64,000 nt of DNA. It comes from Actinomycetota bacterium (GTDB lineage Bacteria > Actinomycetota > Thermoleophilia > RBG-16-64-13). Below the pieces are notes generated by a model, which saw only the letters and a program-made list of their open reading frames with translations, made no database searches and had not been told where the DNA came from. A program made the translations under genes and the position numbers. Shown here piece after piece: positions 38,122 through 49,111 of this stretch. Numbering within the stretch: the first letter of the stretch is position 1; the number at the start of each line of letters is the position of its first letter. The stretch spans positions 2,394-66,393 of the forward strand of contig JAHJSA010000010.1 of NCBI GenBank assembly GCA_018830645.1, given 5' to 3'.

Positions 38122-38164
38122 AATCATCTGACAATCATCCGACGAAGACATAGAATCATCCGAT
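38122..38164 (+). promoter_or_regulatory. triple direct repeat AATCATC(T/C)GA(C/T), copies at 38122, 38133 and 38154 (spacing 11 and 21 nt), upstream of the OLD-family gene
   Basis: Read directly: gAATCATCTGAcAATCATCCGAcgaagacatagAATCATCCGAt. The same architecture recurs at 39920, 42126, 45098 and 49070. Confidence 0.6.
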
Positions 38165-38200
38165 TGAGGAACTAGACCGCGGCAACGACGGGGCGCACCG

Positions 38201-39910
38201 ATGCTGACACGGCTGACCATTCGGAACTTCAAACTGTTCGACGAGATCGATCTCGAGCTGGGTGACCGCGTCATCTTGATCGGGCCTAACAACGCCGGCA
38301 AGACCTCGGCGCTCCAGGCGTTGGCCCTATGGGATATCGGCGTCAAGCGCTGGAGCGAGAAACGCGGCTCGGGTGATGTTCCCGAGAAGCGGCCGGGTGT
38401 GACGATCAACAGGCGCGACCTCATCACCGTGCCTGTTCCCGCGGCCAACCTGCTCTGGCGCGACCTGCATACGCAGATATCCAGCCGAGCAAGTGGCACG
38501 CAGAAGGTCTTTATCGACGTCGTCGTGGAAGGCGTCACGGCCGGCGCCCAATGGCGCTCCGGGCTGGAGTTCTACTACGCGAACGAAGAGTCATTCTACT
38601 GCCGATCGATGCGCCTGCCCGAGGGCGGCCGGATGGACGTGCCCGATGTGGCGACAGGACTACGCATCGCCTATCTGCCGCCCATGTCTGGTCTTGCGGC
38701 GACAGAGACGCGGCTCGATCAGGGTGCGGTGAACGTCCGCCTCGGCGAGGGGCGTACGGCCGAGGTTCTTCGGAACCTGTGTTACCAAGTCCTCCAGGGT
38801 CACGACGGCAAGAACAAGTGGAATCAGCTCGCGCGCGACATGCAGGCATTATTTGGCGTCGAACTGGATGCCCCCGAATATGTGCCGGAGCGCGGAGAGA
38901 TCGTGATGGCCTACCGTACCCGAGGCAAAGTGCGGCTGGATGTTTCCTCGAGCGGCCGCGGTCAGCAGCAGACCCTCCTCTTGCTCGCACACATGACGGC
39001 GAATCCCGGTTCGGTCCTGTTGCTCGATGAGCCCGATGCACACTTGGAGATCCTACGGCAGCGTCAGATATACCAGGTGTTGTCCGAGACGGCGGCGAAG
39101 ACCGGGAGCCAGATACTCGCAGCCAGTCACTCGGAGGTCATTCTCAACGAGGCCGCCGATAGAGACGTGGTCATCGCCTTCGTCGGCAAGCCGCACCGCA
39201 TCGATGATCGTGGTACCCAGGTGCTGAAGGCGTTGAAGGAGATCGGCTTCGAGAATTACTATCAAGCGGAGGAGGTGGGCTGGGTACTCTATCTGGAAGG
39301 GTCGACCGATCTGGCCATACTCCGGGCCCTGGCCGGGAACCTGGATCACCCCGCCCAGGCCGCACTCGAACGCCCATTCGTCCACTACGTAGCGAACCAA
39401 CCGCGAAAGGCACAGGAGCACTTCCACGGGCTGAGGGAAGCGAAGGAAGACTTGGTTGGCCTGGCCATCTACGACAGGCTGGAGCAAACGCTCCCGGCCG
39501 ACCCCTATCTCATGCAGTCAACGTGGGGACGGCGTGAACTCGAGAACTACCTGTGTCAGAAAGAAACCCTCCTCGCCTACGCCGAGGCGCAGGGCCGAGA
39601 TCAGCACGGGGAGCTCTTCGCTGAGGGGTGGCGGCACACGATGGCGGATGCGATCGACGAGATCGAGTCCGCGCTGGCCGCCCTTGGCAAACCGTCGCCT
39701 TGGGACCCCGAGATCAAGGCGAGCGACGATTTCCTCGACCCGCTGTTCAAGAAGTTCTTCGAGAAGCTTGGCCTGCCTAATCTGATGCGCAAGACCGACT
39801 ATCACACGCTCGCGCCGTTCGTCAGTCCAGCCGATATCGACGACGAGGTGAGGGAGATGCTCGATCGCATCACGCAGGCTTCCGAACGCGCCGTGCCACG
39901 GACGAACTGA
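38201..39910 (+). CDS. OLD-family nuclease (N-terminal ABC/AAA_15-like ATPase + C-terminal Toprim-like), GajA/class-1 OLD-like
   Basis: MLTRLTIRNFKLFDEIDLEL...ILIGPNNAGKTSALQALAL (Walker A); LLLDEPDAHLE (Walker B/D-loop); C-terminal VLYLEGSTDLAILRALAG resembles the OLD Toprim EG-x-TD/E motif. Confidence 0.65.
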   Translation: MLTRLTIRNFKLFDEIDLELGDRVILIGPNNAGKTSALQALALWDIGVKRWSEKRGSGDVPEKRPGVTINRRDLITVPVPAANLLWRDLHTQISSRASGTQKVFIDVVVEGVTAGAQWRSGLEFYYANEESFYCRSMRLPEGGRMDVPDVATGLRIAYLPPMSGLAATETRLDQGAVNVRLGEGRTAEVLRNLCYQVLQGHDGKNKWNQLARDMQALFGVELDAPEYVPERGEIVMAYRTRGKVRLDVSSSGRGQQQTLLLLAHMTANPGSVLLLDEPDAHLEILRQRQIYQVLSETAAKTGSQILAASHSEVILNEAADRDVVIAFVGKPHRIDDRGTQVLKALKEIGFENYYQAEEVGWVLYLEGSTDLAILRALAGNLDHPAQAALERPFVHYVANQPRKAQEHFHGLREAKEDLVGLAIYDRLEQTLPADPYLMQSTWGRRELENYLCQKETLLAYAEAQGRDQHGELFAEGWRHTMADAIDEIESALAALGKPSPWDPEIKASDDFLDPLFKKFFEKLGLPNLMRKTDYHTLAPFVSPADIDDEVREMLDRITQASERAVPRTN

Positions 39911-39919
39911 CGCGCTTGG

Positions 39920-39962
39920 AATCTTCCGATAATCATCCGATGGGGAGGCGTAATCATCCGAT
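39920..39962 (+). promoter_or_regulatory. triple direct repeat AATC(T/A)TCCGAT, copies at 39920, 39931 and 39952 (spacing 11 and 21), upstream of the PtuA-like gene
   Basis: gAATCTTCCGATAATCATCCGATggggaggcgtAATCATCCGATg read from the sequence. Confidence 0.6.
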
Positions 39963-39994
39963 GCCCGGGCGCGGAATGCCCACGATGACAAGGA

Positions 39995-47154: not shown

Positions 47155-47242
47155 CCATGCCTGAATGCGCCGCTATTCCGATGAATCCTATGCTGCGCAA
47201 TTGGCGCGTTCATCGCCAAGAACAACGCAAAGAGGCGTGACC

Positions 47243-47398
47243 GTGAAGAAGAAACTCACTGAAGTCGCCCTCCCGCTGGTGGCCATCAACAAAGCCTCCG
47301 CCCGGGAGAAGTCCATCCGCCACGGCCACCCGAGCACCCTGCACCTCTGGTGGGCGCGGCGACCCTTGGCGGCGGCGCGGGCGAAGGCGCCGCAGTGA
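47243..47398 (+). pseudogene. duplicated 5' fragment (first 48 codons) of the DUF1156 methyltransferase, fused to helicase-end-like codons (KAPQ*) and coupled to paralog 4
   Basis: [47 protein letters not shown] matches the start of the 49124 gene. The junction falls at the microhomology gcgcgggcg shared with the helicase 3' end. The TGA overlaps the GTG of the next gene. Confidence 0.6.
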
Positions 47399-49059
47399 CC
47401 ACCGTGGACCTGCAGCAGATAGACCGGTGGCTCGGGCAAGACGAGGACGAGCATCTGGAGTTCAAAGAAGCCAAACGCAGCTTCGAGTTTGAGAAGCTCG
47501 TAAAGTACTGCGCGGCGCTAGCCAATGAAGGTGGCGGCTCGATTGTCTTGGGCGTGACTGATCAGCGCCCTCGACAAGTGGTGGGAACCGCCGCCTTTTC
47601 CAACCTCCAACGCACCAAGGCAGGTCTGCTCGATCGACTTCATTTGCGCATTGACGTCGTCGAATTCGTTCACCCCGGTGGCCGAGTTCTTGTGTTCACG
47701 TCGCCTCCGCGTCCGCCCGGGGTACCCGTCAGTGTCAATGGGGTCAACTGGATGCGTGCCGGCGAGGACCTGGTGCCGATGACGAATGACATGCTGCGTC
47801 GGATTCTCGTTGAGGCGACTTTGGACTTTTCGGCAGAGGTGTGTGTCGGAGCTGGGCTCGACAGTCTTGATCCGCGAGCGATCGAGGTGTTCCGCGAGCG
47901 CTGGCATACGAGGACCCAACGCGCGGCCATCTTGGAATGCACGGTGGACCAGCTCCTGCGCGATAGCGAGCTTGTTGTCGAGGACGGCGTCACATATGCG
48001 GCGCTGGTCCTACTGGGTGCGCCCGCAGCTGTTGGTCACTTCCTCGCCCAATCCGAGGTCGTCTTCGAGTACCGGTCATCCGAAGTGCCGGGCCCGGCCA
48101 ACCAACGCGAGGAGTTCCGTGAGGGTTTCCTGCGTTACTACGATCGGCTCTGGGAGTTGGTCAATCTGCGCAATGATCGACAGCACTATCAGGATGGCTT
48201 GTTCATTGTGGAAGTAGCCACCTTTCATGAGCGGACCGTGCGTGAGGCTGTGCTCAACGCTATCAGCCACCGTGACTATCGGAACGCGGGCTCTGTCTTC
48301 TTGCGGCAGTATCCGCGACGGCTGGAGGTTGTAAGCCCTGGGGGGTTTCCTGAGGGGATTGACCAGACCAACCTGCTGTGGGAACAAAGGCCCCGCAATC
48401 GCCGGATCGCTGAGGCTTTGGGCAGGTGTGGGCTGGTTGAGCGGGCCGGCCAGGGATTTGACCTGATGTTCCGCGAGTGCGTCGAGCACAGCAAGCCCCT
48501 CCCCGACCTTGCGAGGAGCGGGGACCATTCCGTTTGGGTCACTCTGCATGGTGTGGTCCAGGACCCCGAGTTCCTTAGGTTCCTAGAGGAGATTGGACGC
48601 GAGAGAACGGCCTCATTCAGCACCGAGGATCTCCTCACGATTGACCTAATACACCGTGAACAACCGATACCCGCGCATTTTGCGCTCCGTCTGCCGAACC
48701 TGCTGGAGCAGGGCGTGATTGAGCGCGAAGGAAGAGGCAGGGGCACCAGGTATCTATTGTCCCGAAGATTCTACCGCTTCCTTGGCAGAGGGGGGCGATA
48801 CACACGAAGACGCGGGCTAGACCGCGAGACCAACAAGGCTTTGCTACTGCGCCACATTCAGGATTCTGCCGCGGCGGGAACTCGGCTTCAAGAGTTGCAG
48901 CAGGTACTTCCTGATCTCAGTCGAGATCAAGTCCGGACACTGCTGCGGGAGTTGCGACAAGCGGGCCACATTGAGGTGAGGGGGCTCACTAGGGCCGCCC
49001 GGTGGTATCCGGTGAACCAAAGCCCAATCGGACCCAATGAAGACCCAATCCCGACCTAA
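47395..49059 (+). CDS. COG2865-type protein (AlbA_2 + HATPase_c_4 + wHTH), paralog 4 (closest to paralog 3)
   Basis: [62 protein letters not shown]... collinear with the 45478 gene along its full length. Confidence 0.75.
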
Positions 49060-49069
49060 TACACACCCG

Positions 49070-49111
49070 AATCAGGAACCAACGCGGCACTGAGCCGCGG
49101 AATCGACCGAT
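49070..49111 (+). promoter_or_regulatory. partly degenerate copy of the triple-repeat motif (third copy AATCGACCGAT at 49101 is intact) upstream of the intact methyltransferase gene
   Basis: gAATCAGGAACcAACGCGGCACtgagccgcggAATCGACCGATgaaggttgcactGTG; 49091-49152 is near-identical to 45121-45182. Confidence 0.45.

Follow-up and report, generated by a model that had tools for sequence, protein, structure and literature searches.

A direct-repeat trio at the 3′ end of DUF4062-headed winged-helix genes in Hma and other restriction-modification-like loci as a candidate cognate site exchanged together with the protein's C-terminal tail

The 64,000-nucleotide (nt) stretch of an Actinomycetota genome analyzed here (contig JAHJSA010000010.1; hereinafter the window) contains a recurring DNA element, a trio of 11-nt direct-repeat units with the pattern AATCNNCNGAY at offsets 0, +11 and +32, within a defence locus of the Hma type (helicase-methylase-ATPase; PMC8565338), a system since re-described as DUF499-centred and BREX-related (PMC12839542). 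All the sites fall between hmaA (34537-38112, plus strand; a SNF2 helicase with a NOV_C nuclease domain, PADLOC HmaA, 1680 bits), the left border of the insertion region, and hmaB (49124-52006, plus strand; a DUF1156 adenine methyltransferase, PADLOC HmaB, 1589 bits), its right border; the hmaA-hmaB interval is a known hotspot for inserted defence genes (PMC11232893). The locus is Hma by virtue of its HmaA and HmaB, but the DUF499 ATPase HmaC was not found in the window by tblastn with four HmaC candidates of ~1112-1118 amino acids, which elsewhere are encoded by long open reading frames (ORFs) just 3′ of hmaB. Between the borders, and likewise on the plus strand, lie a gene for an OLD/AAA_21-type ATPase (38201-39910), the Septu pair (39995-42033) of ptuA (39995-41374) and ptuB (41371-42033), a gene for an AlbA_2 (Schlafen-like) protein with an HATPase_c_4 domain but without a C-terminal winged helix (42277-43449), a gene for a 519-residue protein with DUF4062, HATPase_c_4 and C-terminal DeoR-like winged-helix domains (43517-45076), and two genes for AlbA_2-HATPase_c_4-winged-helix proteins (45478-47154 and 47395-49059; together spanning 45478-49059).

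Four complete trios can be read directly in this interval, all on the plus strand. Site 1 (38122-38164; class AATCATCCGAY, its units summarized as AATCATCYGAC/T) follows directly on the hmaA stop codon and consists of AATCATCTGAC (38122-38132), AATCATCCGAC (38133-38143) and AATCATCCGAT (38154-38164). Site 2 (39920-39962; class AATC(A/T)TCCGAT) begins 10 nt past the stop of the OLD-like gene, with AATCTTCCGAT at 39920 and AATCATCCGAT at 39931 and 39952. Site 3 (42126-42168; class AATCGTCAGAT) has a degenerate first unit with three mismatches (AATCGTCATGG, 42126), followed by two copies of AATCGTCAGAT (42137 and 42158). Site 4 (45098-45140; class AATCGACCGAY) begins 22 nt past the stop of the DUF4062-headed gene and comprises AATCGACCGAC at 45098 and 45109 and AATCGACCGAT at 45130. 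A sequence-only reading of this DNA had proposed a fifth, partly degenerate trio at 49070. Comparison with site 4 confirms a remnant there (site 5; 49091-49111, plus strand, ahead of the full-length hmaB), consisting of the 10-nt spacer (49091-49100, 9/10 identical to that of site 4) and a single intact AATCGACCGAT third unit at 49101-49111. The supposed first unit, AATCAGGAACC at 49070, is off register by one base; it is the final member of a separate run of ~11-nt CCAAT repeats (49023-49080), and this run reaches into the 3′ end of the gene before it. Only from ~49088-49089 onward is the DNA homologous to site 4, pointing to a recombination junction within unit 2. The window thus holds three unit variants, CATCCGA (sites 1 and 2), GTCAGA (site 3) and GACCGA (site 4 and the site 5 unit).

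There are 15 occurrences of the pattern in the window, compared with 3.5 ± 1.9 in shuffled sequences, and three adjacent doublets of it, compared with none. A motif-free scan of the 64 kb for any 11-mer repeated at 0/+11/+32 returned sites 1-4 alone, bearing out the spacing of 11 and 21 nt in the sequence-only reading; its distances of 35-110 nt from the downstream genes are to be replaced by 37 nt (OLD-like gene), 32 or 61 nt (ptuA), 108 nt (AlbA_2 gene) and 12-13 nt (hmaB copies), measured from the end of the trio to the next start codon. Its view of the element as one of protein-binding type with fixed helical phasing, rather than a recent duplication, agrees with the selection on the units described below and with a spacing that is kept in related loci of many phyla, and we found the element to be absent from unrelated DNA. 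The two outcomes that the sequence-only reading had named as refuting it, a similar motif density in random intergenic DNA and a spacing not conserved in orthologous loci, were both checked in this way, and neither was observed.

We surveyed two samples, namely 79 hmaB loci (one genome per species) and 80 further metagenome loci anchored on the DUF4062-headed protein. In the hmaB loci, trios with the same layout and orientation, often with identical units, recur in distant phyla, and in all trio-bearing loci but one (L020) the trio begins at the stop codon of a gene coding for ~511-533 amino acids. Alignment places this gene in the DUF4062-headed family and not in the AlbA_2 family; we accordingly rejected the AlbA_2 paralogs of COG2865 type as binders. 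An automatic scan found a trio after 79 of 87 DUF4062-headed genes and inspection added seven of the remaining eight, giving ~86/87. The first trio starts at -1 to +9 of the stop codon in 64 of 84 cases, most of the others lying inside a read-through C-terminal extension. Conversely, of the 101 AATC-type trios in 2.05 Mb of loci, 97 are located between -80 and +700 of such a stop, all in the orientation of the gene, the exceptions being sites 1 and 2 of the window and L020. Hma loci without a DUF4062-headed gene have no trio, even where PtuAB, OLD or AlbA_2 genes are embedded in them; their hmaA-hmaB gap is 12-54 nt or is filled by genes with overlapping starts and stops. Therefore, the trio belongs to the DUF4062-headed gene and not to defence cassettes in general, and the idea that it marks embedded cassettes, or is a property of the defence genes downstream of it as the sequence-only reading had it, was abandoned. 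The gene and its trio are also found in type I loci (hsdM-gene-trio-hsdS), in type III-like loci (gene-trio-mod-res) and in other contexts; examples from type I restriction-modification (RM) operons and type III-like mod-res loci are L143 (3448-8096), L112 (349-3382) and L120 (1744-8288). Gene and trio thus travel as passengers in translocating RM-like systems generally.

In Hma loci the interval from this gene to hmaB often holds two to five trios, of which the first is cognate and tight (mean mismatch sum 3.0) and the later ones are looser, with a mismatch sum of 5.2 for trios of the same class and 6.3 for those of other classes (27 heterologous trios 3′ of a cognate one). In L084 (2681-3104), L096, L094 and L118 up to six trios of different classes stand in series with degeneracy rising with distance, which reads like a stratigraphy of past specificity swaps. 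In these Hma loci, 12-27 nt separate the last unit from the hmaB start codon, and the unit stands directly ahead of the ribosome-binding site. Trio-like sites were also observed in IMG/VR viral contigs (L161, 2393-2435; L162, 703-745; L163, 190-232; L164, 450-492); that of L161 is a perfect threefold AATCGTCCGAT ~475 nt from an integrase gene, and that of L163 lies near a terminase gene.

The DUF4062-headed proteins form a family of at least 1438 homologues, which carry database labels such as 'RecG helicase', 'ATP-binding protein' and 'HTH regulator'; a plasmid collection yielded only relatives of ≤35% identity and no annotated close example. In the protein encoded at 43517-45076, Pfam profiles detect DUF4062 (a TIR-like NADase domain), HATPase_c_4 and, in the tail, HTH_DeoR. 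The N-terminus matches the DUF4062 domain of KpSwz (E = 2e-6); DUF4062 has been described in 2026 preprints as a TIR-like NADase effector domain (bioRxiv 10.64898/2026.05.01.722283; 10.64898/2026.09.04.749371). In our alignment the published catalytic glutamate of KpSwz, E97, is ambiguously placed, and NADase competence of the present DUF4062 is a prediction. The middle region matches 3lmm, a COG2865-type protein. The winged helix comprises residues 450-507 (nt 44864-45037), with the recognition helix KDTAGRDLKSLTN at residues 478-490. An AlphaFold2 model of the protein is mediocre overall (predicted local distance difference test score, pLDDT, 67), but its residues 442-507 reach pLDDT 85-90 and fold into three helices (H1-H2-H3) and a beta wing with a G-x-G-R-x-x-x-Y motif; Foldseek pairs this domain with the winged helix of the AspA-DNA complex. 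HTH_DeoR was recovered in four of five tails scanned (E = 2e-6 to 3e-4; 0.017 in the fifth), and isolated tails also match DIP2311-like_C. With the tails of 84 genes preceding a first trio as tblastn queries, the window proved to encode one such winged helix (44873-45040, AKDTAGRDL), with only weak matches to the domains of the AlbA_2 paralogs. Of the candidate binders named in the sequence-only reading, the COG2865 winged helix thus holds up insofar as a COG2865-like winged helix is the best candidate, albeit one belonging to a DUF4062-headed family instead of the AlbA_2 paralogs, while nothing ties the XRE-ImmA protein (60378-61655, minus strand) to the sites.

The protein body is 70-99% conserved; across phyla the protein is 69-81% identical up to the motif ...VTPAVEAQLNERQ, and the last ~60 residues are hypervariable. 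These tails fall into at least 13 discrete variants, each paired with a unit sequence of its own. The recognition-helix variants are TRDTAxRDF with AATCGTCAGAT, V/ARDTAHRDL with AATCATCCGAT, VKDTAHRDL with AATCGTCCGAT, TYDTANRDL with AATCTTCCGAT, AN/KDTAGRDL with AATCGACCGAT, VYDTIRRDL with AATCTACCGAT, VYNTAYRDL (NRWCR) with AATCCATCGAT, VYN/STAxRDL (SGWCL) with AATCTATCGAY, AYQ/LTVYRDL with AATCTATCACC, SPQAVYxDF with AATCATCAACY, TRPxTxxDF with AATCGT(T/A)AA(G/C)N, TRAVTAVDF with AATCGTCAAGT, and TRETTAQDF with AATCGTCAGGT. Over 80 non-redundant loci the correspondence between variant and unit class is almost one to one; the adjusted Rand index between clusters of the H2-H3 segment and unit classes is 0.73, and none of 2000 permutations exceeded 0.14. 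The columns most informative on unit positions 5-10 are residue 471, in H2, and residues 478-483, where H3 begins. A logo of 79 non-redundant first trios shows AATC to be invariant in all three units (information content 1.7-2.0) and positions 5-11 to be class-specific, with nothing else conserved in the spacer and flanks. The units of site 4 also occur in five other loci whose protein has the AN/KDTAGRDL winged helix.

Within a class, the units are 94% identical, whereas adjacent third codon positions are 43%, spacers 52% and the next 30 nt 31% identical. The units are so well preserved where neutral sites are saturated that they must be held by purifying selection. The protein bodies do not follow the classes (identity 0.80 for same-class and 0.78 for different-class pairs). 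For instance, L104, L126 and L120 have bodies 98-99% identical and belong to classes GTCCGA, GTCAGA and TTCCGA, respectively; between L104 and L126 the DNA is 96% identical up to position -175 from the stop codon, which is exactly the start of the winged helix, and bears no similarity beyond. By these alignments, the tail and its sites move as one contiguous cassette of ~250 bp.

We consider it probable that the trios are cognate binding sites of the winged helix of the DUF4062-HATPase_c_4 protein encoded directly upstream and are exchanged jointly with it. Each trio would present three predicted sites on one DNA face to this C-terminal DeoR-like domain, the constant half AATC being probably read by invariant parts of the domain and the variable half (positions 5-11) probably by residues where helix 2 begins and in the first turn of the recognition helix. 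Recombination among near-identical genes would swap winged helix and repeat array together, generating the matched specificity classes, and the resulting module would ride as a passenger in RM-like operons, in Hma as hmaA-gene-trio-hmaB and comparably in type I and type III-like loci. Since the last unit abuts the hmaB ribosome-binding site, the bound protein probably gates transcription into the downstream genes, which it might do as a roadblock to transcription of the upstream operon or by repressing an internal promoter. Physical binding is what we infer from this pattern, as is any transcriptional effect together with its sign. For the window, this proposal implies that several hmaA-hmaB segments were stacked by recombination, that the resident protein (43517-45076) would serve site 4 and the single unit of site 5, and that sites 1-3 may be leftovers of two other classes whose cognate proteins are gone from the window. 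Such a loss is suggested by locus L024, in which a CATCCGA trio stands between its cognate gene and an OLD homologue 72% identical to that of the window; the trio-OLD unit of the window appears to have been inherited from an L024-like locus and the gene then lost.

Several observations weigh against this proposal. The orphan trios are fairly intact although the window encodes no cognate protein for them. In KpSwz the winged-helix-like C-terminal domain binds a phage portal protein and not DNA (bioRxiv 10.64898/2026.05.01.722283). In L080, L115 and L129 the next genes are convergent and the trio is nevertheless retained, a poor fit to an operator acting downstream. On five viral contigs (L160-L164) a trio-like site was found with no DUF4062-type gene, and in L161-L164 no Hma gene either, within the flanks that were fetched. 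In the 79-locus logo neither the flanks nor the spacer of the trio show a conserved -35/-10 element, which makes the regulatory step a guess. Finally, since winged helix and trio adjoin each other on the DNA, linkage could contribute to the co-variation; against an account by linkage alone speak the saturated neighbouring sites (94% versus 43% identity) and the cassette exchange on 99%-identical bodies, which weaken it. Two further candidates were considered in the course of the analysis. A promoter built into the trio, while conceivable, was not adopted, in view of the 79-locus logo and of a scan for sigma-70 promoters and terminators over 37.9-49.4 kb, whose one promoter-like match (38128-38156, inside site 1) is within chance expectation. 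An RNA element was rejected as there was no Rfam match at E ≤ 0.1 over 33-53 kb and no excess folding energy in the strands of the trios relative to shuffled sequences (z between -0.3 and +1.2), nor any hairpin potential.

The sequence-only reading had a single regulator bind all five sites and co-regulate the OLD, Septu, AlbA_2 and hmaB genes. Such a regulator would tolerate the variable positions, and its gene could be that of the resident winged-helix protein or lie elsewhere. This arrangement would draw on the AATC..C.GAY pattern and spacing common to all units, on the mixing of neighbouring classes within one trio (A/G at position 5 in L110, L114 and L130) and on the good preservation of the orphan trios (summed mismatches 2-6). 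Yet the variable positions are constant within each class and follow the winged-helix variant, so that the three classes of the window each call for a variant of their own, and the one winged helix of this kind that it encodes, the AKDTAGRDL type, fits GACCGA and leaves sites 1-3 without a cognate protein there; moreover, the 27 heterologous downstream trios of other loci, with their mismatch sum of 6.3 versus 3.0, look decayed rather than used. A common regulator is therefore an unlikely solution. Another possibility keeps the winged helix as the binder but denies the trio an operator function, casting it as a home-site tether, or DNA 'antidote', that would keep an NADase-type effector resting at its own locus until loss or degradation of the DNA, or competition for the domain, releases or activates it. 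This would account for the position of the trio, fixed to the protein's own stop codon and kept where the downstream genes are convergent or unrelated, and for the private specificities, which would avert cross-neutralization; the N-terminal DUF4062 is an NADase effector domain in the preprints (bioRxiv 10.64898/2026.05.01.722283), and the Schlafen-headed relatives likewise end in 11-nt repeats. It has to contend with stoichiometry, three to six sites per chromosome being able to hold few molecules, and with the abutment of the last unit on the hmaB ribosome-binding site in Hma loci, which suits regulation; conservation of the catalytic glutamate is not established by the alignment, and an influence of DNA binding on the enzyme is purely hypothetical. 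We rate it as unlikely, though to be taken seriously. In its full form, in which the array is the private antidote site of an NADase-type suicide effector, a few molecules of which, made beside the site, stay silent while docked through their hypervariable winged helix, the idea is a little less likely again; here the domain would be freed, and NAD+ depletion set off, once a phage causes host DNA to be destroyed, the element is lost or an anti-restriction protein of DNA-mimic type intervenes, class diversification would stop one element from neutralizing the effector of another, and the Schlafen-headed relatives would act alike.

That the trios could instead be recombination sites or scars of cassette insertion in the hmaA-hmaB hotspot, comparable to integron attachment sites and lacking a dedicated winged-helix partner, is brought to mind by the position of sites 1-3 of the window, each at a module boundary, by the mosaic of hmaB5′::hmaA3′ junctions in the locus, one further junction falling inside unit 2 of site 5, and by the published hotspot itself (PMC11232893). 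We regard this as very improbable: no recombinase is conserved in these loci, and none was found among the scanned ORFs of 34.5-52 kb; PtuAB, OLD and AlbA_2 genes have been inserted in other Hma loci without any trio; the repeats are direct and without hairpin potential; and the co-variation of amino acids and bases would go unexplained. Short repeats are common in GC-rich intergenic DNA, but chance similarity or a recent local duplication without function has next to nothing in its favour, given that the doublets expected in shuffles are zero, that the architecture is conserved across phyla with units 94% identical where neutral sites are saturated, and that the motif-free scan and the 2.05-Mb locus census point the same way; we consider it refuted.

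DeoR-type repressors with tandem operator repeats, such as GlpR and AgaR of Escherichia coli, offer a general parallel, sharing with the present proteins the HTH_DeoR match, the RDL/RDF signature of the recognition helix and direct repeats in helical phase; here, however, the winged helix makes up the C-terminal 60 residues of a 519-residue DUF4062 and GHKL-like protein, the sites are at the 3′ end of its own gene and not upstream, and specificity is hypervariable. The C proteins of RM systems, small stand-alone helix-turn-helix (HTH) proteins whose targets are inverted repeats ahead of their own gene, are likewise DNA-binding modules in mobile RM-type operons with several non-cross-reacting specificity groups, but the repeats described here are direct, 3′ of a large effector-type gene and without recognizable promoter elements. 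BrxR/CapW-type proteins are regulators of defence islands; like them, the DUF4062-headed protein is a winged-helix protein inside defence loci that may gate neighbouring defence genes, and unlike them it has no WYL domain, direct instead of inverted repeats, a site downstream of its gene and an effector-type N-terminal domain. Iterons and their winged-helix Rep initiators resemble it in that direct repeats adjoin the end of the gene for their presumed binder, which would contact them through its C-terminal winged helix, in class-specific pairs. An arrangement of this iteron type, a primase-helicase gene with repeats, was seen in L160, a palindromic iteron look-alike beside a PrimPol-DUF3987 gene. 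The trios, by contrast, sit in chromosomal defence operons next to hmaA, hmaB, hsdM, hsdS or mod, with no replication gene, DnaA box or AT-rich unwinding region, no AT-rich stretch following the trio. From integron-type sites they differ in having no recombinase and no foldable inverted repeats.

Among proteins related in sequence, the Swarozyc protein KpSwz (PDB 10wc) has the DUF4062 N-terminus and a C-terminal domain of winged-helix type as its variable 'sensor' end, but this auxiliary domain binds a phage portal protein, HATPase_c_4 is lacking and no DNA site has been described (bioRxiv 10.64898/2026.05.01.722283). The prokaryotic Schlafen-HisKinase-HTH proteins (COG2865, DIP2311; PDB 3lmm; bioRxiv 10.1101/2025.07.24.666596; PMC12839542) share the HATPase_c_4 and winged-helix C-terminal half at ~30% identity, sit in BREX, Hma or type I operons as well, and have genes that end in ~11-nt direct repeats; they differ in their AlbA_2/Schlafen N-terminus and in having contiguous (G/C)CAAT units and not the 0/+11/+32 AATC trio. 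In this second repeat family, four to five units of ~11 nt sharing a (G/C)CAAT core follow one another without gaps, either at the stop codon of an AlbA_2-HATPase_c_4-winged-helix gene or running across it; the family was observed in the window (49023-49080) and in L040 (~9790-9850; GCAATTCCGAC in four contiguous copies, two exact and two variant), L044 (three copies of TAATTGCACCG), L078 and L085, which suggests that the rule of a site at the gene's own end extends to the Schlafen-headed relatives. The Hma papers, the survey of BREX-related systems and the bacterial Schlafen preprint mention neither repeats nor a DNA target. Term searches of the DUF4062 preprints, for one of them with HTH/DNA-binding terms only, returned no repeats or DNA-binding target, and titles and abstracts on COG2865, HATPase_c_4 and DIP2311 report none; as far as the portions of the literature searched go, no DNA target has been reported for the DUF4062-headed family or for Schlafen-headed or COG2865 proteins. 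A winged-helix protein with phased direct-repeat sites is thus familiar, whereas the family, the placement at its own gene's 3′ end and the hypervariable, co-exchanged cassette of protein and site are undescribed in the literature searched.

The remainder of the window bears further marks of rearrangement. Chimeric hmaB5′::hmaA3′ scars, in which 28-144 nt of the hmaB 5′ end are joined to 26-240 nt of the hmaA 3′ end, occur at 43470-43497, at 45150-45482 (plus strand) and at 47240-47399, the last parting the two AlbA_2 winged-helix genes; each ends with a stop codon that overlaps the start of the next embedded gene, for 45150-45482 the AlbA_2 gene beginning at 45478. Their structure suggests tandem Hma loci that collapsed or hmaA3′-gene-hmaB5′ segments inserted by a single crossover, and L024 likewise carries an hmaB 5′ fragment before its embedded OLD gene. 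A 14-codon ORF (38109-38153; MTAMESSDNHPTKT) whose ATGA overlaps the hmaA stop extends into site 1 and may be all that is left of the start of a deleted gene that was translationally coupled, possibly the one lost from the trio-OLD unit; its beginning, ATGACCGCG, fits a DUF4062 gene (MTA...) or an AlbA_2 gene (VTV...), being too short to tell the two apart. Between ptuB and site 3 (42030-42125) the DNA forms a strong hairpin (GUGAGCCAUAG...CUAUGGCUCAU; -34.6 kcal/mol, z = -2.6), a stretch like its 'ccatagaagag' being present in L117 and L123. The hairpin may represent a terminator or a further protein site. At the left, a tRNA-SeC gene (31144-31240) is followed by a drop in GC content and genes of toxin-antitoxin type, including a Gp49/HigB-like-HTH fusion (32721-33299) and a ParE toxin (33696-33998); the region 31144-34500 looks like the left edge of a genomic island, although a 386-residue ORF within it (31420-32580) had no integrase match. 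The DNA 3′ of hmaB (52007-53900) has small ORFs without a Pfam match, followed by a Stk2-like Ser/Thr kinase (53957-55288) and an Abi_C protein (55532-56347). The XRE-HTH and Peptidase_M78 (ImmA-like) protein, paired with a 'Beta protein' (PF14350) at 59267-61655 on the minus strand, and a DUF6414 protein (62338-63192) are defence-type modules unrelated to the trios.

If the proposed pairing of tail and trio is correct, the reading of the window would shift from five co-regulated units to one served site and a set of orphan sites left by stacked hmaA-hmaB segments. The family would gain a target and with it a natural recognition code, at least 13 pairs of a recognition-helix variant and a 7-nt half-site on a constant scaffold, which would be useful for the design of orthogonal DNA-binding modules. 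The proteins would also represent a case in which a specificity cassette, protein tail plus site, is exchanged as a unit between 99%-identical genes, and would give access to the question of how RM-like systems connect the 'backup' effectors they harbour to the host operon.

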